Below, piece by piece: positions 23,138 to 43,835 of a DNA stretch of 64,000 nt (positions within the stretch are counted from its first letter, which is position 1; each line of letters begins with the position of its first letter). The notes under the pieces are model-generated. The model ran no database searches. It saw only the letters and a list, made by a program, of their open reading frames with translations, and was not told the DNA's origin. Origin of the DNA: Dehalococcoidia bacterium (GTDB taxonomy: Bacteria; Chloroflexota; Dehalococcoidia; Lucifugimonadales; UBA3495); NCBI GenBank assembly GCA_965203195.1, contig OZ241860.1:1986334-2050333 (forward strand), written 5' to 3'. The position numbers were made by a program, and so were the translations under genes.

Positions 23138-24052
23138 ATGACTACTCCCAATGTCGCTACTACCACCGCTCCCCCAACCCGGCCGGCGGATGCGCCGGCT
23201 CTCGCCTCAACCCTGGACCAGTTCCCCGACTTTCCGCCGCGTACCGATATGATGAACACAACGCACCTCCACGACTACGGGAACCAGCCCACGCTGCGCC
23301 TGCATCTGGGCAACCCGGAGACCACCGTAGTACTTGGCGAGGTTCCACTTTACTGGCAGGTTACCCGGCGGCGCGCCGAAGTCCGCATCCCGGATCTGCT
23401 CATCGCCTTTGACATCCGGCGCGCCCGGGTCATTGCCCAGAAGGGGTACTCCATTCGCGACCAGGGCAAGCCGCCCGAATTCGTGCTGGAGGTGGCGTCG
23501 GACACCACGGCGCGCAACGACCAGCTGGACAAGTGGGTTGACTACGCCGCCTTCGGGGTGCTGGAGTACTGGCTTTTTGACCCGGACTGGGGCTTGCGCT
23601 ACCCCAGCGGGCTGATCGGCTGGCGACTGGTGAACGGACGCTTTGTGCGCATCATCGTCCACGAATATGCGCCGGGTATGTATTTTGCCTGGAGCGCGGT
23701 TCTGGGGCTGTATGTCTGCTGGGAATTCGGCCGGCTGCGCTGGTACGACCCGCTGAAGGGATACTTGCGCACCCACGATGAGGAGCGGAGCAGCCGCATC
23801 GCCGCCGTGGCGCAGCGTAACGAGGAGCGGAGCAGCCGCATCGCCGCGGAGGCGCAGCGGAATGAGGAGCGGAGCAGCCGCATCGCCGCCGAAGTGCAGC
23901 GCGACGAGGAGCGGGACAGCCGCATCGCCGCCGAAGCGCAGCGCGACGAGGAGCGCAACAGCCGTATCGCCGCCGAGGCGGAACTCCAGCGCCTGCGCGC
24001 CGCAATGGCCCGCCGGCAAGCCGGGGCCGCCGGCAACGGCGACGCGGCATAG
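23138..24052 (+). CDS. Uma2-family (DUF820) PD-(D/E)XK endonuclease with C-terminal 14-aa tandem repeats
   Basis: Core ...RIPDLLIAF...PPEFVLEVASDTT...YAAFGVLEYWLFDP. The tail is (EERSSRIAAEAQRN) x about 5. Confidence 0.75.
   Translation: MTTPNVATTTAPPTRPADAPALASTLDQFPDFPPRTDMMNTTHLHDYGNQPTLRLHLGNPETTVVLGEVPLYWQVTRRRAEVRIPDLLIAFDIRRARVIAQKGYSIRDQGKPPEFVLEVASDTTARNDQLDKWVDYAAFGVLEYWLFDPDWGLRYPSGLIGWRLVNGRFVRIIVHEYAPGMYFAWSAVLGLYVCWEFGRLRWYDPLKGYLRTHDEERSSRIAAVAQRNEERSSRIAAEAQRNEERSSRIAAEVQRDEERDSRIAAEAQRDEERNSRIAAEAELQRLRAAMARRQAGAAGNGDAA
23780..23980. repeat. 42-bp tandem repeat, about 4.8 units (in-frame)
   Basis: The unit gaggagcggagcagccgcatcgccgccgtggcgcagcgtaac is repeated with point differences. 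Confidence 0.85.
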
Positions 24053-28776: not shown

Positions 28777-30345
28777 TTACGCGGTGGCCGGCGGCGCTTT
28801 CGGCCGGGCCAGTTCGGCCAGATAGTCCGTGGCCCACTGGCGGGCGATGCGGAGTTCAATGCGCCGGTCAATCGCCCGGTCGCCGTACCAGCGACCGTTG
28901 CGCCGGTTATCCTGGCGCAGGGCGGTCAGCGTCATCGTGTTGGATTTGCGCTTGTTGCAGGGGCCGCACAGCGGGGCGCGGTTCTCCAGCTCGTTGCTGC
29001 CGCCTTCGGAATCGGGCAGAATGTGGTCCAGCTCCAGAAACTCGGCGGTGGGCGGCTCAAAGCCGCAGCCCCAGCAGCGGACGCCCCACTGCTCAACCAG
29101 GATGTCCAGCATTTCCTGGCGGCGCATTGTAGCCGGCCGGCGGCGGCGGTACACCGGCCCCAGATGCGGGGCGCTTTCGCCATCATCGGTGCGCGCGGGC
29201 GGGATGTAGCGGATTTCACAGGCGGCTTGCAGCTGGGGCATCAGGCTCTGCTGCTGCGCCTTGAAATCGTCAACATTGATGCCCAGACCGAGCAGACGGT
29301 TGGCGACGTGATAGGCGGCATCCTCGCGGCGGTCGATGCCCACCCAGCGGCGGCCCAGATTCTGGGCGGCAATCGGCGTGGTGGCACACCCGCAAAATGG
29401 GTCCAGCACAATATCACCAGGGTTTGAGCCCGCCGCGACAATGCGTTCATACAGGGCCAGCGGCTTTTGGTCGGGCGAGCCGGTGCGCTCGCGACGCGGG
29501 GCGTGCATCATATCGGCAATGTCCGTCCAGGTATCGCCAAGCATTACATTTTCGATGACATCATTGCCACGAGTCTCCAAGTCGTATCTGATTCTGATGT
29601 TACCGCTTGCCGTGCGGTGAATCCTACTTTCCGATTCCAGACGCGCAACGCTGGAATCGGTATAGTTCCCGCGTGGGGCCGTTTTAAAAGCCTGGCCGTT
29701 ATTGTCGATGCGGATGTGCGACGGGAGGGATGACTTCGGATGGCGGATTTCCCCGCTTACCCGGTTGTACCGGGCTTCGGGCGACTTGCCGTAAACGTAG
29801 ATAATTTCGTGGTTACGCGGGAACTGGCGGGATGTAGCCTTTCCTCCGCGGCCGCTTTTCCCATAAACCCAAATTACCTCGTTCCTGAAATTCCGCTTGC
29901 CAAAGATGGCGTCCAATACCATGCGGATATAGGCATTGGCGCTGTGGTCGCAGTGCAGGTAGATGCTGCCCGTCGGTTTCAGCACCCGGTGCATTTCCAG
30001 CAGGCGGACGCCCAGGAAGCAGAGGAACGCCGCCGTGTCGTCGTCCTGCGTCATCCGGGTGGATTCGATGACCTGGAACAGGGCCCGGTTTTCGTCCTGG
30101 ATTTGGTCCAGCCAGATGCGGTGGACGGGTTGCCAGAGCCACTGGTCAGGGCGGTTCAGCATAGTCGGGTCGTCGGCCCAGCGCCAGGCGTCCTCGTACT
30201 GGCTGGCCGAGGCGGCGCGGTTGCGCTTTTTGTTGAAAGGCGGGTCGGTGGCGATTAGGTCCACGGTTTCGCTGTTCATCCCGCGCAGGACATCCAGGTT
30301 GTCCATATTGTAGAGGACGCGGTCGGGGAAGTTCTGCTGGGCCAT
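28777..30345 (-). CDS. beta-class N4/N6 DNA methyltransferase fused to a C-terminal HNH endonuclease domain (copy 1)
   Basis: Motif IV LIATDPPFNKKRN, motif I VLDPFCGCATTPIAA, C-terminal CWGCGF...LELDHILPDSEGGSNELENRAPLCGPCNKRK (HNH). ATG 30345 has AGGAG upstream. Confidence 0.85.
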   Translation of the reverse strand: MAQQNFPDRVLYNMDNLDVLRGMNSETVDLIATDPPFNKKRNRAASASQYEDAWRWADDPTMLNRPDQWLWQPVHRIWLDQIQDENRALFQVIESTRMTQDDDTAAFLCFLGVRLLEMHRVLKPTGSIYLHCDHSANAYIRMVLDAIFGKRNFRNEVIWVYGKSGRGGKATSRQFPRNHEIIYVYGKSPEARYNRVSGEIRHPKSSLPSHIRIDNNGQAFKTAPRGNYTDSSVARLESESRIHRTASGNIRIRYDLETRGNDVIENVMLGDTWTDIADMMHAPRRERTGSPDQKPLALYERIVAAGSNPGDIVLDPFCGCATTPIAAQNLGRRWVGIDRREDAAYHVANRLLGLGINVDDFKAQQQSLMPQLQAACEIRYIPPARTDDGESAPHLGPVYRRRRPATMRRQEMLDILVEQWGVRCWGCGFEPPTAEFLELDHILPDSEGGSNELENRAPLCGPCNKRKSNTMTLTALRQDNRRNGRWYGDRAIDRRIELRIARQWATDYLAELARPKAPPATA

Positions 30346-30416
30346 TGTGGGGTACTCCTGTCCTGCGACCATACTGTTGCCGGTATAATGAGGATTTCCG
30401 CAGCACTGTCCGGTTA

Positions 30417-30446
30417 GATATATTGTATTTACAGCGTCCGTGTCAA
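30417..30446 (-). promoter_or_regulatory. near-consensus sigma70-type promoter for MTase-HNH copy 1
   Basis: Minus strand reads TTGACA (30446-30441), N18, TATATC (30422-30417). It is an AT-rich island in GC-rich DNA, about 70 nt upstream of ATG 30345. Confidence 0.45.
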
Positions 30447-30455
30447 GTTGGGGCA

Positions 30456-30537
30456 GTTCCCGGCGATGAAGGTTATTTTTGCCGCCGCGCGCAACGCCGG
30501 GGCGCAGGGGGCGCACCTGATGCCGGCGGCGGAATAA
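30456..30537 (+). pseudogene. remnant copy of the thrB 3' end (internal 141-bp deletion)
   Basis: 30456-30505 matches thrB 28534-28583. 30506-30537 matches thrB 28725-28756, including the TAA stop. The junction falls in a shared ggcgc microhomology. Confidence 0.85.
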
Positions 30538-30589
30538 AGCGGGGCCGGGCCGCGCCGGGCCGCTTGCCCGCATTGAATCGCCTTGCCGT

Positions 30590-32053
30590 CTATTCCCGCA
30601 ATTCCGCCGGCACCGGAAAGTCTTTGATAAATGACTTGGCGTATGACATCCAGCCGCCCTGGTAGGGTCGTCCGGTCTGCCGGATGTAAAAGTCCATATC
30701 ATCCGAATTCAGCGCCGACAGCAGACGCTTCCGGTCGACGCCGGGCTTGGGCTTGACGCAGTAGCCGGAATAAAAGGTCGCATCCGCGTTGGGGCAAACC
30801 TGAAAGTTGGGGCGCCGGTTCATGCCGGAGGTCAAAATCTTGTCGCCAAACCCGGAGACGATGGAAACCTGCCGGCCGAAAGCGTACCAGCGCGCCGGGT
30901 CAAATCGCCCCTTGTCCCGGTTGAGCAGCCGTTCCCGGTGGGAAATCAGCCACCGGTAGGCCACGGGAGCATTGGCGGCAATATCGCCTTCGGGCAGCAG
31001 CCGGCCGTGGTCATCATACGGGAAAATGGCGACGCGGCGCACCGGATCCTGCCCGTCGCGCATCACCGACGCTTTGACCACGGGGCGCAGGAGCCGGGGT
31101 TCCAGCCCGATGGCGCGGGCCTCGCCCGCCGGCAGGATGAATACCCGGTCGGCCAGTGTCTGTATGCCTACATGGATGTCCGCAACCGCCGCCAGGCGCG
31201 GCCCCCGGCGGGCCAGTTCCTGCATCCGCCGCCGTTCCGCCGCCGTGGCCGCCAACCAGGTATGCGCGGGATTGCCGGCGTCCAACGCGATTGCCCCGGC
31301 GTCATAGAAACGCGCGCCGTCATACTTTGATACCGGGATGTCTGCCGGCGCGCCGTCTTTTCGTATGATGGTGACGGCGGTGTAGGTGGTAACATCGTCA
31401 AAGACTTGGTGTTCGCCGAAGTCAATAATTCGTTCCACCCGGTGGGATTGCGCCAGCAACTGGCGCAGTGCCGCCCCGGAGGCCGACCGCAGCCAGCTGG
31501 AGGGGGCAATGTAGCCCAGCAAACCGCCGCTGCCGAGCAGGGCCAATCCCAGCTCGTAAAACACCAGGAACAAATCAGTGGCGCCGCGCGTAACGCGCCA
31601 GCGGCCGGCGATGCGATGGCGGCCTGACTGCTCCAGATGCTGCACCCGCACATAAGGCGGGTTGCCGACGATATGCGTAAATCGGCCCCAATCGGCGGCG
31701 AAAGCGTCCCGGTCAAAAGCATTTCGTACTTGCAGGTTCCATTGGACCCGCGCGCCGGGATGCCATTGAGCCAGAGTGTCATCCAGGCGGGAGCGGCAGC
31801 GGGCGATGGCGGCGGCGTCTATGTCGTAGCCGGCCATACGGCCCAGAGCGGCCAGGGCATCGGCGCGGCCCAGGCGCGTCAGCAGCCGGCGGGCCACGGC
31901 GACCAGAAAGGCTCCTTCGCCGCAGGCCGGGTCGCAGATGGATGCCGCGCCCAGCCCGTCGGCGCCGGCCGGCAGCGCATTGTCTAGTACCAGAGCCACG
32001 ATGGACGCCGGGGTATAGACTACGCCTTGCCGCTTGCGGGTGGAAATACTCAT
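30590..32053 (-). CDS. gamma-class N6-adenine DNA methyltransferase (Eco57I/TaqI-like), M subunit of type II R-M pair 1
   Basis: VVYTPASIV, motif I ICDPACGEGAFLVA, motif IV IVGNPPYVRV. The ATG overlaps the upstream R gene stop (ATGA). Confidence 0.85.
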   Translation of the reverse strand: MSISTRKRQGVVYTPASIVALVLDNALPAGADGLGAASICDPACGEGAFLVAVARRLLTRLGRADALAALGRMAGYDIDAAAIARCRSRLDDTLAQWHPGARVQWNLQVRNAFDRDAFAADWGRFTHIVGNPPYVRVQHLEQSGRHRIAGRWRVTRGATDLFLVFYELGLALLGSGGLLGYIAPSSWLRSASGAALRQLLAQSHRVERIIDFGEHQVFDDVTTYTAVTIIRKDGAPADIPVSKYDGARFYDAGAIALDAGNPAHTWLAATAAERRRMQELARRGPRLAAVADIHVGIQTLADRVFILPAGEARAIGLEPRLLRPVVKASVMRDGQDPVRRVAIFPYDDHGRLLPEGDIAANAPVAYRWLISHRERLLNRDKGRFDPARWYAFGRQVSIVSGFGDKILTSGMNRRPNFQVCPNADATFYSGYCVKPKPGVDRKRLLSALNSDDMDFYIRQTGRPYQGGWMSYAKSFIKDFPVPAELRE

Positions 32054-32739
32054 GGCGACAGGCGTCTCAATTCAATGCGTCGGGCCATACGCGGGAAAAA
32101 CAGCGGGACGCGCAGCGCATTGTCCAGCGCGGCGCAGCCTTCGGCGCTGATGCCCATTGCGGCGGGGTTGGCAATGCCGATTATGGCGTTGGCGTCGGTA
32201 TCCAGCTCAGCAATGCCGATTGCCATTTCCTGCGGGGCGTGAATATGCTCGTGGTCGGCGCGGAGCCGGGCGTAGCGCTGGATGTCATTATCTCTGATGG
32301 CTTCCCGGCGCACAATCTGCCCGGCCCGGTTTTTGTAGGGTATAGGGTTGGTTACACAGAAAAGGTTGCCGTACACAATGTTGCGGCGACGCAGGTTGGC
32401 GGTTTCGCCAATCTGCTGCTCCAGGTAGTTGACGGAGTTTTGCCAGTAATTGGAGATGACAAACTTGACGCTGATTACCCCCAGTTCCTCGCCATCCCGC
32501 GCGACAAGCACATCAACATTTTTGTCGTAATACATACCGACAACGCCGGCTTCCTGCGCGCTGACCGGAGATTGCCCGGTGAAAGTGTACCCGTCTCCCA
32601 GCTCGCGACGCAACTCATCCTGCACCCAACCGTGCAGGACTTTGGTCTTTTCATTGGAACGAACGCCGTGCCGGAGTACCATCCGGTAGGATTCCTGCAT
32701 CGCCGCCAGGAAGCGTTGCTCTACACTGTCGGTTGGCAT
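32050..32739 (-). CDS. putative type II restriction endonuclease (R subunit of pair 1)
   Basis: 229 aa with a PD-(D/E)XK-like KNVDVLVARDGEELGVISVKFVISNY. 4-nt overlap with the methylase gene. GC visibly lower than in the neighbouring genes. Confidence 0.6.
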   Translation of the reverse strand: MPTDSVEQRFLAAMQESYRMVLRHGVRSNEKTKVLHGWVQDELRRELGDGYTFTGQSPVSAQEAGVVGMYYDKNVDVLVARDGEELGVISVKFVISNYWQNSVNYLEQQIGETANLRRRNIVYGNLFCVTNPIPYKNRAGQIVRREAIRDNDIQRYARLRADHEHIHAPQEMAIGIAELDTDANAIIGIANPAAMGISAEGCAALDNALRVPLFFPRMARRIELRRLSP

Positions 32740-33168: not shown

Positions 33169-33978
33169 GGCCGTGTTGACATTTCAGCGTAGCCAGATGA
33201 GGGCCGCCGCAAAATGCCAAAACCCCAAGTAGCGCCGGCTCAATTTCTCAAACCGGGTGAACACCCGCCGGTAGCGCTTCACTTTGCCAATAAAGCACTC
33301 CACCAAATGACGCTCGCCGTACAGGTCCGGATCATACACCACCACTACCTTCCGGTTGGAACGCCCCGGTATCACCGCCGTCATCCCCAACTCCGCAATC
33401 CACTCCCGCAGCCACTGGGCATCGTATCCCTTGTCCGCAATCACATACTCGCCGGCGTAGCCGGACAGCAACGCTTCGGCCTGGGTAATATCGTTCTCCT
33501 GGCCTCCCGTCAGGATGAACCGCAAAGGATTGCCCAGCCCGTCCACTGTGATGTGTACTTTGGTACTGAACCCGCCCCGACTGCGCCCTAACGCTTGAGC
33601 GTCTTGACCGCCCCCTTTTTCGGGGCGCCGGCGGCGTCGGGATGAGCGCGGACGATGGTACTGTCAATGATGAGGTATTCGGTGTCCGGGTCATCGGCCA
33701 AGTGTTGGTGGAGCGCCGTCCAGATGCCACGGTCGCACCAGTTGGCGTAGCGTCGGTAGATGGAGTTCCATTTGCCGTATTCCGCAGGCAGCATTCGCCA
33801 GGGGGCGCCGGAGCGGGCAATCCAAAGTACGGCGGTAACGAAGCGTCGGCAATCGGTTTCACAGCCGACGTAGAGGTCGGAGCGGCTGCGGAGGAAGGCG
33901 AGGATTTTGTCCCATTGGTAGGATGTCAGTTCCAAGTTTGCCATGCCGCAATGATAACACCAAAATGTCAACACGACC
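33169..33978 (-). mobile_element. IS5-family (IS427/IS1031-like) insertion sequence, copy 1
   Basis: About 17-bp terminal inverted repeats: GGCCGTGTTGACATTT at the left end and AAAATGTCAACACGACC at the right end. The element is about 810 bp and has a two-frame transposase. Confidence 0.85.
33184..33944 (-). CDS. IS5-family DDE transposase, orfA-orfB joined by a -1 frameshift
   Basis: orfA is MANLELTSYQWDKIL...GAPKKG. The slippery AAAAAG lies at 33620-33615. The -1 frame continues GGGQDAQALGRSRGGFSTKVHITVDGLGNPL...ADKGYD...ERHLVECFIGKVKRYRRVFTRFEK. Confidence 0.85.
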
Positions 33979-33980
33979 TA

Positions 33981-34790
33981 GGCCGTGTTGACATTTCAGC
34001 GTAGCCAGATGAGGGCCGCCGCAAAATGCCAAAACCCCAAGTAGCGCCGGCTCAATTTCTCAAACCGGGTGAACACCCGCCGGTAGCGCTTCACCTTGCC
34101 AATAAAGCACTCCACCAAATGACGCTCGCCGTACAGGTCCGGGTCATACACCACCACTACCTTCCGGTTGGAACGGCCCGGTATCACCGCCGTCATCCCC
34201 AACTCCGCAATCCACTCCCGCAGCCACTGGGCATCGTACCCTTTGTCCGCAATCACATACTCGCCGACGTAGCCGGACAGCAGCGCTTCGGCCTGGGTAA
34301 TGTCGTTCTCCTGGCCTCCCGTCAGGATGAACCGCAAAGGATTGCCCAGCCCGTCCACTGTGATGTGCACTTTGGTACTGAACCCGCCCCGACTGCGCCC
34401 TAACGCTTGAGCGTCTTGACCGCCCCCTTTTTAGGGGCGCCGGCGGCGTCAGGATGGGCGCGGACGATGGTGCTGTCAATGATGAGGTATTCGGTGTCCG
34501 GGTCATCGGCCAAGTGTTGGTGGAGCGCCGTCCAGATGCCGCGGTCGCGCCAGTTGGCGTAGCGTCGGTAGATGGAGTTCCATTTGCCGTATTCCGCAGG
34601 CAGCATTCGCCAGGGGGCGCCGGAGCGGGCAATCCAAAGTACGGCGGTAACGAAACGGCGGCAATCGGTTTCACAGCCGACGTAGAGGTCGGAGCGGCTG
34701 CGGAGGAAAGTGAGGATTTTGTCCCATTGGTAGGATGTCAGTTCCAAGTTTGCCATGCCGCAATGATAACACCAAAATGTCAACACGGCC
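33981..34790 (-). mobile_element. IS5-family insertion sequence, copy 2 (head-to-tail with copy 1, separated by TA)
   Basis: Same inverted repeats (perfect GGCCGTGTTGACATTT / AAAATGTCAACACGGCC). It is flanked by TA on both sides. It is near-identical to copy 1, with scattered substitutions. Confidence 0.85.
33996..34756 (-). CDS. IS5-family DDE transposase, orfA-orfB joined by a -1 frameshift
   Basis: Same architecture as copy 1, with the slippery AAAAAG at 34432-34427. Confidence 0.85.
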
Positions 34791-35432: not shown

Positions 35433-35555
35433 GCCTAACCGGGAACGACACCGGGGCGATAGCCGCAGCAGCGCTGGCCGCCGCCGGTGTAGCATCCCGC
35501 CGGCCGGTGTAGTATCCTGCCGGCTATGGACGCGCTGCCCGGCATTCCGCCTTCC

Positions 35556-35645
35556 ATTCCGGTTGAGCCGGTTCCGGTTGAACCGATTCGGACTGAACCG
35601 ATTCCGGTTGAGCCGGTTCTGATTGAGCCGGTTCTGATTGAGCCG
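35556..35645 (+). repeat. 15-bp tandem repeat (ccgRttcYgRttgaR, about 6 units) abutting the acetyltransferase ATG
   Basis: Read directly from the sequence. If translated from ATG 35526 it would encode (PVEPx)n. Confidence 0.7.
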
Positions 35646-36206
35646 ATGACGCCCGCCGACTGGCCGGCCGTGCGGCGCATTTACGCGGAGGGCATCGCCA
35701 CCGGGCAGGCTACCTTTGAGACGGAAGCGCCGGGCTGGGATGCCTGGAACCGCAGCCACCTGCCCCTATGCCGCCTGGTGGCCCGCGCCGCCGGCAGTGG
35801 CAACGGCGCTGATAGCGGCAGAGATGGCGATGGCAGTAGCGGCGGCAATGGCGGGAATAACGCCGGCGGCGTTCTGGCCTGGGCGGCCCTGTCGCCCGTG
35901 TCGGGCCGCGCCTGTTACTCGGGTGTGGCCGAACACAGCATCTATGTTGACGCCGCCGCCCGGGGACGGGGCATCGGCAAACTGCTGCTGGGCGAACTGG
36001 CGCGGCAGTCGGAAGCCGCCGGCATCTGGACATTGCAGAGCAGCATATTCCCGGAAAACGCCGCCAGCATTGCTATCCACCTGGCGTGCGGCTTCCGCAT
36101 CCTGGGCCGCCACAAGCGGGTAGCGATGCACAACGGCGTCTGGCGCGACACCGTAATTATGGAACGCCGCAGCAATGTAGTCGGAGTCGAAGGTATGCAA
36201 CACTAG
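35646..36206 (+). CDS. GNAT N-acetyltransferase, phosphinothricin-acetyltransferase-like, with Gly/Asn/Ser insert
   Basis: MTPADWPAVRRIYAEGIATGQATFETE...EHSIYVDAAARGRGIGKLLL...NAASIAIHLACGF. Confidence 0.75.
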   Translation: MTPADWPAVRRIYAEGIATGQATFETEAPGWDAWNRSHLPLCRLVARAAGSGNGADSGRDGDGSSGGNGGNNAGGVLAWAALSPVSGRACYSGVAEHSIYVDAAARGRGIGKLLLGELARQSEAAGIWTLQSSIFPENAASIAIHLACGFRILGRHKRVAMHNGVWRDTVIMERRSNVVGVEGMQH

Positions 36207-36357: not shown

Positions 36358-37749
36358 TCAGGCCGCAATCCCCATTTCCCGCAGGCGGGCCAGCAGGTAT
36401 TCCTGCGATCGGACGCCCTTGACGCGGTTGCAGTGGCCGCAGAGGAGTTGCAGGTTTTCAATGTGGTCGGCGCCGCCGGCGGACTGGGGGATGATGTGGT
36501 CAACCTCCATATGCCGGAACTCAAAGGCGGAGCGGCAGCCCCGGCAGCGGCCCTCCTGCTGCCCAAAGAGGATGTGCCGGTTCTGGCGGTAGGGGCGGGG
36601 CGCGTCAATGTCAGTGCGGCGGGGTATGTCGGCGCGGGCGGTTACCAGGCGGTTGTGAAAGAGGTTGCCCATTGACTGCCGCAAGCGCATATTGACCAGC
36701 TCCACGGCCTTGGGCGAGATGTCAATGCCAATCCAGCGGCGGCCCAGCTGCTCGGCGGCCACGCAGGCGGTGGCGCAGCCGCAGAACGGGTCCAGCACTA
36801 CATCGCCGGGGTTGGACGAGGCTTTGATGATGCGTTCCAGCAGGGCCAGCGGCTTTTGCGTGGGATAGCCGATGCGCTCTTTGGCTTGGGATGCAATGGG
36901 CGATATGTCCGTCCAAATATCCTGCAACGGCACGCCGGGCATTTCATCAAGATAACGCTTATATTGAGGCACACCTCCCGGCCTTCTCTGGACTATCCGG
37001 CCCTCGTCAATCAGTTCCTGCATTCGCGCTTCGCTGTAACGCCAGTACCGGGTCACTCCCATCATTTCGTAATGCGGGTTGCCTTTGGAGGCACCGCCGG
37101 GGGCGGTCAGATCGCTCAGCCTGTAACGGCGGTTGGTTCCCGGCTCTGTGTACCTGTAGAACTTGGCTACATACTCCGGGTTATAGGCCGTATAGACCGG
37201 GTTCCAGTTCCATTGGTCCGACTTGGTGTAAAAAAGCAGGATGTCGTGAATGCGGCCATGCTGCCGTCGGCCTTGTCGGGTATCGCTATGGGCGTTAGTG
37301 CGCCGCCAGGTAATTTCGCTGCGGAAATTGCCGGCGCCGTAGATGCTGTCCAGCAGCAGTTTGAGGTAATGGCCGGCGGTGGGGTCGCAGTGCAGGTAGA
37401 TGGAGCCGGTGTCTTTCAGCACGCGGCGCATTTCCAGCAGTCGGACGGCCATCATACAGAGGTAGGATTGCATTCCCTTGCCGTGGGTGAGGCCGGCGGC
37501 GGCCAGGGCCTGGTAGAGGGCGGGCTGTTGGTCGGCGACTAGGCCCATCCAGGCGGTGTCCAGGTCGGACAGGGTCCAGGTGTCCTTGAAGGCGGCGCCG
37601 GCGGCGGCGCTGCCCACGGGGGCGGCGTAGTTGCGGTTGGAGTTGAAGGGCGGGTCGAGGTAGATGAGGTCAACCGAGGCGGAGTTGAGGCCGCGCAGGA
37701 TGTCCAGGTTGTCGCCCGTCCAGATGGTTTTGTCGGCGAAGTTGGTCAT
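36358..37749 (-). CDS. beta-class N4/N6 DNA methyltransferase fused to a C-terminal HNH endonuclease domain (copy 2)
   Basis: Motif IV LIYLDPPFNSNRNY, motif I VLDPFCGCATACVAA, C-terminal CRGCRSAFEFRHMEVDHIIPQSAGGADHIENLQLLCGHCNRVKG. Confidence 0.85.
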   Translation of the reverse strand: MTNFADKTIWTGDNLDILRGLNSASVDLIYLDPPFNSNRNYAAPVGSAAAGAAFKDTWTLSDLDTAWMGLVADQQPALYQALAAAGLTHGKGMQSYLCMMAVRLLEMRRVLKDTGSIYLHCDPTAGHYLKLLLDSIYGAGNFRSEITWRRTNAHSDTRQGRRQHGRIHDILLFYTKSDQWNWNPVYTAYNPEYVAKFYRYTEPGTNRRYRLSDLTAPGGASKGNPHYEMMGVTRYWRYSEARMQELIDEGRIVQRRPGGVPQYKRYLDEMPGVPLQDIWTDISPIASQAKERIGYPTQKPLALLERIIKASSNPGDVVLDPFCGCATACVAAEQLGRRWIGIDISPKAVELVNMRLRQSMGNLFHNRLVTARADIPRRTDIDAPRPYRQNRHILFGQQEGRCRGCRSAFEFRHMEVDHIIPQSAGGADHIENLQLLCGHCNRVKGVRSQEYLLARLREMGIAA

Positions 37750-37764
37750 AGTGATTGCCTGGCT

Positions 37765-38138
37765 TCACCCGTTGCGGGCCAGGCCCGGCGCGGCCAGAGG
37801 TTCCATTATGTCCAGGAATCGCTCCAAATCGAGCAGGTCGCCGGCCACGTTCGCGGCATTATCCCAGTTCTCATAAAAATTTGCCTCGAGGCTGATGGCA
37901 ACCTGGAACAGGACCGGATGTCGTCGTCGCCGGTTTCGGAGGCCAGCCGGGAGATGACATTATAGAGGGCGGCATGGTCGTGATGCGCCCAACCGCGTCG
38001 CACGGCCACGGATTTGACGATTTGGGCGGCGGCGGCCCAGCCCTTTTGGGATGCCTGGCGGGTGTCGCCGGCGGCGAGTTCCTCACGCGCCTGCGTCAGC
38101 AGGTGCCGGCTGGCGGTCTGATAAGTTTGCGCTACCAT
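37765..38138 (-). pseudogene. HEPN-like (PaREP1-type) paralogue 1, frameshifted
   Basis: Same N-terminus as paralogues 2-4 (MVAQTYQTASRHLL...). A 1-nt deletion within 37903-37920 relative to paralogue 4 shifts the frame. The shifted frame restores LFQVAISLEANFYENWDNAANVAGDLLDLERFLDIMEPLAAP. Confidence 0.7.
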
Positions 38139-38148
38139 AGATTGCCTC

Positions 38149-38505
38149 CTACGGCGTGGCCAGCGGTTCCAGCTGGTCCAGGAACTGTGCGATGTCGTCA
38201 AGACTGTCGGCCACGTTCGCGGCGTTATTCCAGTTTTCGTGGAAGTTCACCTGGAGGTTGCCGGCAACGTCGAACAGCCGCCGTATGTCCTCGTCTCCGG
38301 TTTCGTCCGCCAGTCTCCGGATGACGCGATACAGGGCGGCATGGTCGTGATGCGCCCAGCCGCGCGTTTCGGCTACGGATTTGACGATTTGGGCGGCGGC
38401 GGCCCAGCCCTTTTCGGATGCCTGGCGGGTATCGCCAGCGGCGAGTTCCTCATGCGCCTGCGCCAGCAGGTGGCGGCTGGCGGTCTGGTAGGTTTGGGCT
38501 ACCAT
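38149..38505 (-). CDS. HEPN-like (PaREP1-type) paralogue 2
   Basis: 118 aa: MVAQTYQTASRHLLAQAHEELAAGDTRQASEKGWAAAAQIVKSVAETRGWAHHDHAALYRVIRRL.... GGAGGC lies upstream. Confidence 0.75.
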   Translation of the reverse strand: MVAQTYQTASRHLLAQAHEELAAGDTRQASEKGWAAAAQIVKSVAETRGWAHHDHAALYRVIRRLADETGDEDIRRLFDVAGNLQVNFHENWNNAANVADSLDDIAQFLDQLEPLATP

Positions 38506-38515
38506 AGATTGCCTC

Positions 38516-38872
38516 CTACGGCGCGGCCAGCGGTTCCAGCCGGTCCACAAACCGCTCAATTCGGGACAGGGCGCCGGCTACGTTTTCGGCGTTGTCCCAA
38601 TTTTCGTAAAAGTTGGTGTGGAGGGCGTTGGCGATATGGAACAGGTCGCGGATGTCGCCATCGCCGGTTTCGTTGGTCAGGCGCCTGACGACGCGATACA
38701 GGGCGGCATGGCTACCGTGTTCCCATCCGCGTCGCGCGGCTACGGATTTGACGATTTGGGCGGCGGCGCCCCAGCCTTTTTCGGAGGCTTGGCGGGTGTC
38801 GCCGGCGGCGAGTTCCTCATGCGCCTGCGCCAGCAAATGCCGGCTGGCGGTCTGATAGGTTTGCGCTACCAT
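38516..38872 (-). CDS. HEPN-like (PaREP1-type) paralogue 3
   Basis: 118 aa, same pattern (…VAARRGWEHGSHAALYRVVRRL…). GGAGGC lies upstream, with a 10-nt spacer to the next gene. Confidence 0.75.
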   Translation of the reverse strand: MVAQTYQTASRHLLAQAHEELAAGDTRQASEKGWGAAAQIVKSVAARRGWEHGSHAALYRVVRRLTNETGDGDIRDLFHIANALHTNFYENWDNAENVAGALSRIERFVDRLEPLAAP

Positions 38873-38882
38873 AGATTGCCTC

Positions 38883-39239
38883 CTACGGCGTAGCCAGCGG
38901 TTCCAGCTTATCCAGGAACTGTGCGATGTCATCCAGGTCGCCGTCCACGCTCACGCCGGGTATCCAGTTTTCGTAGAAATTTGCCTCGAGGCTGATGGCA
39001 ACGTTGAACAGCCGGCGTATATCGTCGTCGCCGGTTTCAGCGACCAGCCTGGAGATGACGATAAAGAGGGCGGCGTGGTCGTGATGCGCCCAACCGCGCG
39101 TTTCGGCTACGGATTTGACGATTTGGGCGGCGGCGGCCCAGCCCTTATGGGATGCCTGGCGGGTGTCGCCGAGATACAAATCCGCGCGGGCTTGCGCCAG
39201 CAGGTGACGGCTGTCGGCTGGGCAGGTTGGCATTGCCAT
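38883..39239 (-). CDS. HEPN-like (PaREP1-type) paralogue 4
   Basis: 118 aa with a divergent N-terminus (MAMPTCPADSRHLLAQARADLYLGDTRQASHKGW...). The remainder is conserved. Confidence 0.75.
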   Translation of the reverse strand: MAMPTCPADSRHLLAQARADLYLGDTRQASHKGWAAAAQIVKSVAETRGWAHHDHAALFIVISRLVAETGDDDIRRLFNVAISLEANFYENWIPGVSVDGDLDDIAQFLDKLEPLATP

Positions 39240-39350: not shown

Positions 39351-39716
39351 CTAGGCTTCGAGGGCCTTGGCCAGCTTCGCCAAAGTGGCCTTCGGGTTGA
39401 GCGCGGAGCGGCGCGCCAGCTGGTGCAAGTGGCGCAGCCGGAGGGCCTGTTCGCCGGTTGCGAGACTCTCATTCGAAAGCGTCGCGAATTTGTGGCTGGT
39501 CTCCAAAACCTCGGCCGTGTAGCCGTCATCGTCAAAAATTTCAAGCTGATGGCGGGCCGCAGGAGAGTATTTGCCGGTACTCAACTCCCGCACCACAACC
39601 GCGATGGTATCTACGGATGTCACGAACGCGTCGTTGGTCACGGAAGGACGCCAGCGCAATTTCCCGTCATCGGTTTGCCGGATCAATCCTTCCAAAATCC
39701 GGTCCATTTCGCTCAT
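39351..39716 (-). CDS. hypothetical 121-aa protein
   Basis: Clean ORF, translationally coupled (ATGA overlap) to the upstream TM-protein gene. I recognise no motif in it. Confidence 0.55.
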   Translation of the reverse strand: MSEMDRILEGLIRQTDDGKLRWRPSVTNDAFVTSVDTIAVVVRELSTGKYSPAARHQLEIFDDDGYTAEVLETSHKFATLSNESLATGEQALRLRHLHQLARRSALNPKATLAKLAKALEA

Positions 39717-40237
39717 CTCGTGTCCTCCTGTTGATTGCCAAAGCCCAAGTCGCTGGCCAATTCCTCCAGGTCGCTCTGTATCAGGTTCAGTATCCGATAC
39801 AGCAACGCCGTGTCAGGTTCCTCACCGGGTTGTCCGAAGTGCGCTGCAACGAGGTTTTCCATCTCCCTGACAGCGACTATGGCGTCGGACAACCGGGCTT
39901 GGAACCCGGTTTGACCCTCCGGGCAGCGTTTGCGGATGTCGGACAGCATTTGCCGCAGCGACTGGTACTGCTCCAGAGCCGCATCCCACCGGCGGGCGCC
40001 GTGCAGGATTTTGATGCGCTGGATGAGAGCTATGGCGCGTTGCAGATCTACCGCTTGCAGATGGCGGGCGATGTCGCTGCGCGTTTCGTTGGCCGCGGCG
40101 CGCGCCGCCTGCGATGCGGAGCGGGCGCCCCGCGCCTCGATGATGGCCCACGCCAGCCCGGCAAGCGAAACGACCACGCCTGTAACGCTGGCTAAACTCC
40201 CCCAGTTGTCCGCCAAGTATCCCATCAGGTATTCCAT
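39713..40237 (-). CDS. hypothetical N-terminally membrane-anchored helical protein
   Basis: The start is taken at ATG 40237 (MEYLMGYLADNWGSLASVTGVVVSLAGLAWAII), giving one predicted TM helix and then a helical soluble domain. The track start 40399 adds an Arg/Cys-rich leader. Confidence 0.5.
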   Translation of the reverse strand: MEYLMGYLADNWGSLASVTGVVVSLAGLAWAIIEARGARSASQAARAAANETRSDIARHLQAVDLQRAIALIQRIKILHGARRWDAALEQYQSLRQMLSDIRKRCPEGQTGFQARLSDAIVAVREMENLVAAHFGQPGEEPDTALLYRILNLIQSDLEELASDLGFGNQQEDTR

Positions 40238-43478: not shown

Positions 43479-43835
43479 ATGACCTATTCCGAATACGCCC
43501 GCTGCGCCCGCAAGTTCCTTGTCGACTCCGACCGCGAATTCGCCGTCGGCGAAAGGCAGCAGGCATCCGAAAAGCTCTACGGCGCCGCCAACGAAGCCCT
43601 TACCGCCGTCGCAATCCGGCGCGGCTGGAAATACCGCACCCACCGGGATATGAAAAACGCCGCCCAGCGACTGGCCGCCGAGCTGGACGACCCCTTCCTG
43701 GTAGGCGGGTTCGGCCTCGCCGAAAAATTCCACAAAAACTTTTTCCACGACGAAATGGAGGACTACGAAATCGCATCCGACCGCCCCTACGTTCATCTGT
43801 ATGTCAACCGGGTGCTGGCCCTGCTGGATGGCTAA
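43479..43835 (+). CDS. solitary divergent HEPN-like (PaREP1-type) protein
   Basis: 118 aa: ...DREFAVGERQQASEKLYGAANEALTAVAIRRGWKYRTHRDM...AEKFHKNFFHD. It has the same length and helix pattern as the 38-39 kb array. Confidence 0.65.
   Translation: MTYSEYARCARKFLVDSDREFAVGERQQASEKLYGAANEALTAVAIRRGWKYRTHRDMKNAAQRLAAELDDPFLVGGFGLAEKFHKNFFHDEMEDYEIASDRPYVHLYVNRVLALLDG

Follow-up and report, generated by a model that had tools for sequence, protein, structure and literature searches.

A 64-kb stretch of a Dehalococcoidia (Chloroflexota) chromosome, referred to here as the window and used for all coordinates, carries on its minus strand a tandem array of four paralogous genes of the PaREP1 family, directly upstream of a gene for a DNA methyltransferase with a C-terminal HNH nuclease (MTase-HNH). 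The array (37766-39239) consists of four 367-bp units, and Tandem Repeats Finder reports a single array at 37786-39171 (period 367, 3.8 copies, 78% matches, score 1670). The ATG codons, at 39239, 38872, 38505 and 38138, are spaced by exactly 367 nucleotides (nt). An earlier reading of the letters alone (the sequence-only reading) had described four units with this period and these start codons, and its coordinates and description are correct. Three of the four units contain intact genes of 118 amino acids (aa): unit 1 (38883-39239), which is distal to the methyltransferase gene and was called copy 4 in the sequence-only reading, unit 2 (38516-38872) and unit 3 (38149-38505), all on the minus strand. 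Unit 4 (37766-38138, minus strand) adjoins the methyltransferase gene and is frameshifted, as alignments and a profile match split over two frames indicate. Unit 1 has a distinct N-terminus (MAMPTCPADS), and its orthologues are the first units of the array in three related assemblies (L003, L085 and L086); the exact proteins of units 2 and 3 are also encoded in L094 and L086/L095, respectively. A fifth, divergent PaREP1 gene stands alone on the plus strand (43479-43835) between pyk (pyruvate kinase) and ileS, and a search with a family hidden Markov model (HMM) found no further copies in the 64-kb window.

The array is part of a co-oriented, tightly spaced string of genes that begins with an open reading frame (ORF) of ~174 aa (39713-40237, minus strand; start at 40237 inferred from relatives), which has an N-terminal hydrophobic segment, and a 121-aa ORF (39351-39716, minus strand) that overlaps it by 4 nt, and that continues through the four PaREP1 units to the MTase-HNH gene (36358-37749, minus strand). 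Spacers between the genes of the array cassette are 10-16 nt long, each with a Shine-Dalgarno sequence. TAG-GAGG-CAATCT-ATG precedes each of the three units proximal to the methyltransferase gene (GGAGG ~7 nt before the ATG), the stop codon of the preceding unit overlapping the Shine-Dalgarno sequence of the next. A promoter-like site (40278-40250) lies upstream of the ~174-aa ORF, and no internal terminator was found on the coding strand of the string. This layout is operon-like, and the array is predicted to be co-transcribed with the MTase-HNH gene, as is probable from these signals. The MTase-HNH protein (463 aa) matches PF01555 (E=8e-43), PF01844 (E=6.6e-14) and the PADLOC model MTase_II (E=1.8e-66); its methyltransferase is of the N6/N4 type with DPPF at residue 32, and its nuclease domain contains the zinc-finger pairs CRGC and CGHC. 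A methyltransferase motif together with a nuclease domain would make this a type II-like enzyme. Its methylase part resembles methylases of phages and plasmids that have no HNH domain.

Units 1 to 3 match the Pfam family PF05942 (PaREP1) with 51.9 bits (E=8.3e-14), 73.6 bits (E=1.5e-20) and 62.5 bits (E=4.2e-17), and the solo gene matches it with 48.7 bits (E=8.5e-13), all above the gathering threshold of 24.4 bits; the solo gene, noted by the sequence-only reading as a divergent fifth member, is thereby placed in the family. The sequence of the Sulfolobus PaREP1 structure (2jpu/2q00) was recovered with a profile of 86 family members (E=5e-10), whereas a search of PDB sequences with a single PaREP1 protein returned no significant match. 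No meaningful match to the PaREP1 proteins was found in NCBIfam, and Rfam identified no RNA family anywhere in the window. The AlphaFold model of unit 2 is a five-helix bundle (pLDDT 96.6, pTM 0.90), for which Foldseek ranks Sulfolobus PaREP1 2q00 first (TM-scores 0.83/0.82, root-mean-square deviation 1.8 A over 119 columns), and HEPN domains are also matched: 2hsb (0.84), 1wol (0.72), 1ufb (0.66), 1o3u (0.65), the HEPN domain of sacsin (0.67) and the HEPN toxin 7bxo (~0.6). The Pfam HEPN model itself is below threshold for the window copies (E 0.015-0.05), and a two-domain relative (P0124) passes its cut-off (31.9 versus 22 bits). Membership of the array proteins in PaREP1 and in the HEPN fold class is supported by these profile matches and by the predicted structure, and it accords with the placement of PaREP1 in the HEPN-T clade by Anantharaman et al. 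2013. The sequence-only reading had proposed such a fold and had named the lack of profile or structural similarity to HEPN as the finding that would speak against it; both kinds of similarity were found.

The alignment of ~400 non-identical relatives was examined for conserved residues, which are D25, Q28, S30, E31, K32, W34, K42, R48-G-W, H52, H55, E68, F78, A81 and L84-H85-x-N87-F-Y-E90; the solo gene, only 30% identical to unit 2, retains R48, H55, E31, H85 and N87. The sequence-only reading had taken the stretch RGWAHH for the R-x4-H motif of HEPN proteins. This identification does not hold: the stretch lies in the loop after helix 2, residues R48 to H55 facing a longer and non-conserved loop of Sulfolobus PaREP1, and in a profile alignment the only histidine common to both is H85 (LHtNfyE versus LHVEgFHE). 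No arginine is present 4 to 6 residues ahead of H85 (positions 79-81), and the array proteins therefore lack the canonical Rx4-6H motif of catalytic HEPN RNases, in agreement with the published statement that PaREP1 'lacks R but H is conserved' (PMC3710099). RGWAHH belongs, by alignment, to another loop and is a motif specific to the clade, distinct from the canonical HEPN catalytic motif; the R48/H52/H55 triad is found in 325 of the 400 sequences. Position 85 is E, H, Q and E in units 1 to 4, so that the HEPN histidine is kept in unit 2 only, which is also the only unit of the array with the family-consensus pair E31/H85. This pair is found in 315 of the 400 sequences. Among those that carry H85E, 21 have Q, G, N or A at position 31 and 7 retain E31; in unit 1 the pair is swapped to H31/E85. 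This covariation suggests that positions 31 and 85 touch.

The reading frame of unit 4 is broken. A 1-nt deletion, located by the sequence-only reading within 37903-37920, is real in the assembly: nucleotide alignment with relatives shows that one C is lost between positions 37915 and 37914, where unit 4 reads ATCCG-GTCCTG and the closest relative (L085) reads ATCCGCGTCCTG. Past the deletion, the conserved C-terminal part, which the sequence-only reading had noted only in the -1 frame, stays open in that alternative frame until a TGA at 37766-37768, and the match to the family HMM is split, positions 2-78 and 77-117 falling in different frames. Repaired, the product would have 124 aa, ending ...MEPLAAPGLARNG, and the restored stop would lie 16 nt from the ATG of the MTase-HNH gene. 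The corresponding unit of L085 is nearly identical save for the missing C, and the ratio of nonsynonymous to synonymous divergence (dN/dS, omega) between it and repaired unit 4 is 0.16. In all seven related assemblies (L001, L002, L003, L084, L085, L086 and L094) the orthologue is intact in a single frame, and these intact proximal copies have a C-terminal extension and 122-130 aa. An exact-sequence look-up among 15 billion proteins returned the truncated 110-aa product of unit 4 as a singleton cluster from the source contig (3,779,225 bp) only. Programmed -1 frameshifting, by which the ribosome would shift within the proximal copy to give a full-length protein, would account for the conserved C-terminal part staying open in the -1 frame, but it is effectively refuted: no slippery heptamer of the form X XXY YYZ is present at the site (GAC ATC CGG TCC TGT), all seven relatives encode the copy in a single frame, and the truncated product is unique to this contig. 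Because the orthologues are intact in all seven assemblies, the frameshift is either a very recent strain-specific pseudogenisation or a local uncorrected assembly error within the repeat. Of the two possibilities raised by the sequence-only reading, a recent lesion (now with assembly error beside it) stands, whereas a frameshift-dependent variant does not. A generally error-prone assembly was also considered as the cause and is disfavoured, since comparison with L003 revealed no frame-breaking indels in 5 kb of flanking coding sequence. An origin from HiFi metagenome assembly is suggested by contig names of the form ctgN_NNx_l and would make a random indel less likely.

The seven related assemblies also carry the string of a ~170-aa ORF, a ~121-aa ORF, a PaREP1 array and an MTase-HNH gene, in each case at one shared chromosomal site next to pyk and a gene for a luciferase-like monooxygenase; their DNA identity to the window ranges from ~80% (L001) to ~95% (L085). 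Copy-number change in the array, which the sequence-only reading had considered, is evident among these close relatives: there are 4 copies in L084, L085, L086/L095 and L094, 5 in L001 and L002, and 6 in L003. Classified by type, the units are A, B1, C, D in the window, A, B2, C, D in L085, A, B2, C, E in L086, and A, B2, C, B1, a B/C hybrid and F in L003. The edges of the array are most distinctive, the first unit having its own 5' end and the last its own 3' end. The mosaic units, the copy numbers of 4, 5 and 6 and the distinctive edges show, on sequence comparison, an array that changes through unequal crossing-over and gene conversion. Synonymous divergence (dS) between paralogues is 0.42-0.95 with omega of 0.14-0.45, and omega between orthologues of different strains is 0.07-0.57. 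These values identify the copies, as judged from substitution patterns, as old paralogues maintained as non-redundant genes under purifying selection; dating of the duplications by nucleotide alignment, suggested along with the sequence-only reading, thus goes against young duplicates. Recent horizontal transfer of the array was rejected, as its G+C content (0.63-0.65) is close to the window mean (0.653) and it occupies the same site in genomes that are ~80% identical.

The MTase-HNH gene also varies between strains. In comparison with L003, identity is 97-100% over the first ~120 and last ~150 residues but only 25-45% over the central ~120 aa, and the DNA of this central part (36918-37306, G+C content 0.58) cannot be aligned between strains whose flanks are at least 90% identical. 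This pattern indicates that the central part is a swapped target-recognition region. In other relatives the MTase-HNH gene is broken into two ORFs (L004, 8792-10168; L098 and L100, 3566-5461), from which it appears that gene inactivation in the cassette recurs across lineages. One or two PaREP1 copies are located directly upstream of an orthologous MTase-HNH gene in four other, independent Dehalococcoidia genomes (L004, L005, L009 and L012), and the linkage persists across several genomes in which the PaREP1 protein is just 65-73% identical. A metagenome scan and clustering of neighbouring genes ruled out an obligatory linkage: association with restriction-modification is present in the lineage of the window and in these four genomes, and absent at most PaREP1 loci and several MTase-HNH loci. 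The linkage to MTase-HNH is, by gene neighbourhood, limited to one Dehalococcoidia clade.

Tandem small genes directly upstream of an HNH enzyme resemble immunity-gene arrays, and a second MTase-HNH gene is present in the same island; it could therefore be supposed that the PaREP1 proteins restrain the HNH domain as Im proteins restrain colicin HNH DNases, the array providing dosage or variant cover. This explanation is very unlikely. The PaREP1 proteins have no similarity of sequence or fold to Im proteins, their Foldseek matches being HEPN domains; strains whose arrays differ share 97-100% identity in the HNH region; and MTase-HNH genes exist without PaREP1.

The two ORFs at the head of the string were examined as possible partners of the array. 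Neither matches any Pfam or PADLOC model. The 121-aa ORF has 74 homologues, none of them named, and its AlphaFold model (pLDDT 85.8) has an alpha-beta4-alpha2 arrangement with no fold match in PDB (best TM-score 0.33) and no nucleotidyltransferase-like fold. Homologues of the ~174-aa ORF, 170-174 aa long, occupy the same position in L001, L003, L084, L085 and L105. In most of its occurrences the 121-aa family lies beside a ~171-aa protein with no PaREP1 gene nearby, and it is also found directly before an MTase-HNH remnant. The ~174/121-aa pair (39351-40237 in the window; 4489-5330 in L091-L093) stands alone in other genomes, far from PaREP1 or methylase genes, and forms a separate two-gene module. 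The possibility that the 121-aa ORF is a hidden MNT was rejected because it has no Pfam match and no fold match and its family occurs mostly elsewhere, and no MNT is present among the called genes of the related loci. The absence of an MNT partner pointed out by the sequence-only reading is therefore confirmed by Pfam, PADLOC and fold comparison, but it is not an anomaly: paREP1 genes have been reported as not associated with MNT (PMC2701414, 2009; PMC3632139, 2013) and as occurring 'in tandem repeats' (PMC3710099).

With no MNT present, a toxin-antitoxin system would need another antitoxin, either the 121-aa protein or the paralogues without the HEPN histidine acting as pseudo-enzymes, with one or more of the PaREP1 copies being HEPN RNase toxins. 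The HEPN fold is compatible with this, as are the one canonical copy beside three that have lost the histidine and the 121-aa ORF upstream of PaREP1 both here and at a more distant locus (L014), and a paREP1 toxin with an unidentified antitoxin has been left open in the literature (PMC3632139). Against it, there are hundreds of solo copies without a small partner gene next to them, the 121-aa family is mostly found without PaREP1, every copy in other arrays has E31/H85, and the catalytic arginine is absent. A toxin-antitoxin system is accordingly improbable, although a partner role for the 121-aa protein is still conceivable.

The wider family was found to be large. Close PaREP1 proteins number 769, and there are 1408 clusters at 50% identity (E<=1e-3) and at least 594 matches in species-representative genomes, of which the best 80 comprise 79 metagenome-assembled genomes (MAGs) of Dehalococcoidia/Chloroflexota and one of Acidimicrobiia. 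One match already carries the NCBI label 'PaREP1 family protein [Chloroflexota bacterium]'. Record names such as SAR202 bin87 and Candidatus Spongiisociaceae suggest that several relatives come from marine sponge microbiomes. Arrays with at least three copies have originated repeatedly (L020, L026, L043 and L049). Natural fusions contain two PaREP1 domains (P0121, P0122, P0124, P0133 and P0161), which is indirect evidence that neighbouring paralogues pair.

The favoured reading of the locus is that of a variable-copy, recombining PaREP1 array that may form an accessory layer to the MTase-HNH enzyme, with a probability of about 0.5 for this reading as a whole. The array proteins would be distinct from the classical toxins controlled by MNT. 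They probably form homo- or heterodimers, as proposed from the naturally fused two-domain proteins and the general tendency of HEPN domains to dimerise, and the copies of one array would act in both combinations. They would present a non-canonical polar site made up of R48-G-W-x-H52-x-x-H55, E31/H85, N87 and E90. Unit 2 alone has the HEPN histidine, and the other three copies may be its non-catalytic partners. The array as a whole would be an RNA-binding, RNA-cutting or regulatory layer; the specific assignment of an accessory RNA-directed or regulatory role within the MTase-HNH restriction-modification enzyme is tentative and falls short of even odds. Points in favour of this role are the MTase-HNH gene directly downstream of PaREP1 in independent Dehalococcoidia genomes, the swapped target-recognition region and the further methyltransferase and insertion-sequence genes of the island. 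HEPN genes linked to restriction-modification have been proposed to be a second line of defence following the logic of PrrC (PMC3710099).

Several observations weigh against this reading. With the canonical arginine absent and E or Q in place of the histidine in every array copy but unit 2, RNase activity of the array proteins is doubtful, and it is unlikely that even one array copy is a nuclease. None of the PADLOC models matches the PaREP1 proteins, and no PaREP1 relatives were found in viral contigs or viral structure predictions, a result that also leaves a phage origin of the genes unsupported. Close homologues of the MTase-HNH gene occur without PaREP1 (L096, L099, L101 and L102), others come directly after the 174/121-aa pair (L088 and L105), and at most of ~80 genome loci a solo PaREP1 gene lies among metabolic genes with no recurrent partner.

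Such loci are what would be expected if PaREP1 had a housekeeping or regulatory role outside defence, which is the main rival to an accessory layer: the proteins would be non-toxic bundles that bind a ligand, nucleotide or RNA, or possibly a metal through the conserved His and Glu, and their proximity to MTase-HNH would be accidental. The prevalence of solo members with no conserved neighbour, the existence of MTase-HNH without PaREP1 and the incomplete Rx4-6H motif all fit this explanation, as does the solo gene between pyk and ileS, which occupies the same position in L003, L085 and L086, has 6-8 nucleotide differences and no amino-acid differences from its counterparts in L003 and L086, and encodes a protein present in exactly this form on 14 contigs. 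An accidental association is more difficult to reconcile with PaREP1 genes that are co-oriented with, and directly upstream of, MTase-HNH in genomes that have diverged to 65-73% identity of the PaREP1 protein, or with the retention of four to six diverged copies at 10-16 nt spacing ahead of it. Archaeal PaREP1 genes likewise mark strain-variable regions (PMC3558965). A housekeeping role is on balance somewhat unlikely.

A more elaborate version of the favoured reading is that the PaREP1 array and MTase-HNH constitute an undescribed defence module, in which a combinatorial set of heterodimerising HEPN-fold subunits, one with the histidine and several without it, would either regulate MTase-HNH or sense its failure, with an RNA-directed response as the outcome. 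This proposal is speculative and, as a whole, improbable; if it were true, changes in copy number, shuffling of units and target-recognition swapping would give co-existing strains different specificities. As the functions proposed for the array, defence included, are predictions, the advance is an incremental one. PaREP1 has so far been treated as an archaeal HEPN family restricted to thermophiles and with no role assigned, and its large expansion in Dehalococcoidia extends the host range. The cassette would allow PaREP1 proteins to be tested directly as RNases, as regulators or as inert partners, and the paralogues without the histidine as pseudo-enzyme subunits.

The cassette belongs to an island (28.7-40.4 kb) rich in restriction-modification and insertion-sequence genes, all of those described below being on the minus strand. 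A second MTase-HNH fusion of 641 aa (28777-30702; PF01555 E=1.3e-37, HNH E=3e-9) is encoded 6 kb from the first, and the island thus holds two enzymes of uncommon architecture; in L001, L002 and L084 there is a second methyltransferase of 607 aa, convergent with the first. An Eco57I-type N6 methylase of 487 aa (30590-32053) overlaps by 4 nt a 229-aa partner ORF (32050-32739) that has no Pfam match and may be its cognate nuclease, and the same pair (486 aa and 229 aa) is found near a homologue of the 121-aa ORF in L088. Two direct tandem copies of an IS4/IS5-type insertion sequence (33184-33974 and 33996-34786), each consisting of a DUF4096 orfA (128 aa) and a DDE orfB (120 or 124 aa), have a period of ~812 bp, which exceeds the 500-nt limit of the repeat finder. 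Two shorter tandem repeats of the window lie within ORFs on the plus strand: a 15-nt repeat (35557-35645, 5.9 copies), which gives the product of a GNAT acetyltransferase ORF (35526-36206) an N-terminal peptide repeat of the PVEPI type, and a 42-nt repeat (23780-23980, 4.8 copies, 89% matches) that encodes a 14-residue peptide repeat in ORF 23138-24052.

The cassette was compared with four known systems. It is most readily set beside archaeal PaREP1/PaREP8 (PF05942; 2q00/2jpu), with which it shares the family HMM, the five-helix fold (TM-score 0.83) and the HEPN histidine without the arginine, as well as tandem repeats, lineage-specific expansions, the lack of an MNT partner and location in strain-variable regions. 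The hosts of the archaeal genes are thermophilic Crenarchaeota, whereas here they are Dehalococcoidia MAGs; the conserved R-G-W-x-H-x-x-H is an addition located in a shortened loop, which in Sulfolobus is longer and non-conserved; and the operon-like linkage to MTase-HNH in one clade is absent from the 2013 table for PaREP1. HEPN-MNT toxin-antitoxin systems of type II/VII (Shewanella SO_3166/SO_3165, 7bxo) have in common with the array a small protein of the HEPN fold (TM-score ~0.6), but here no MNT is present in or next to the cassette, the Rx4-6H motif is incomplete and most relatives are solo genes. PrrC-EcoprrI and other HEPN genes of restriction-modification loci resemble the array in that a gene of the HEPN superfamily runs in the same direction as that of a restriction-modification enzyme and has further methylases in its island, and the logic of a second line of defence may extend to the array. 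Unlike PrrC, the array proteins have no ABC-ATPase domain, consist of a single domain of 118-124 aa and lack a full Rx4-6H motif, and their partner is a single-chain MTase-HNH rather than a type I enzyme, with a linkage that is confined to one clade and non-obligatory. The tandem immunity-gene arrays beside HNH toxins (colicin E7/E9-Im) are also composed of diverged small helical paralogues in strain-variable copy number, but their fold is unrelated, and here the nuclease is one domain of a methylase fusion and not a secreted toxin, and the array is upstream rather than downstream of it. Thus the PaREP1 family, its tandem habit and the absence of an MNT partner are already in the literature, and what is new is the expansion in Dehalococcoidia with its own R/H/H motif, the copy-variable array coupled to MTase-HNH, and the paralogues that have lost the HEPN histidine.

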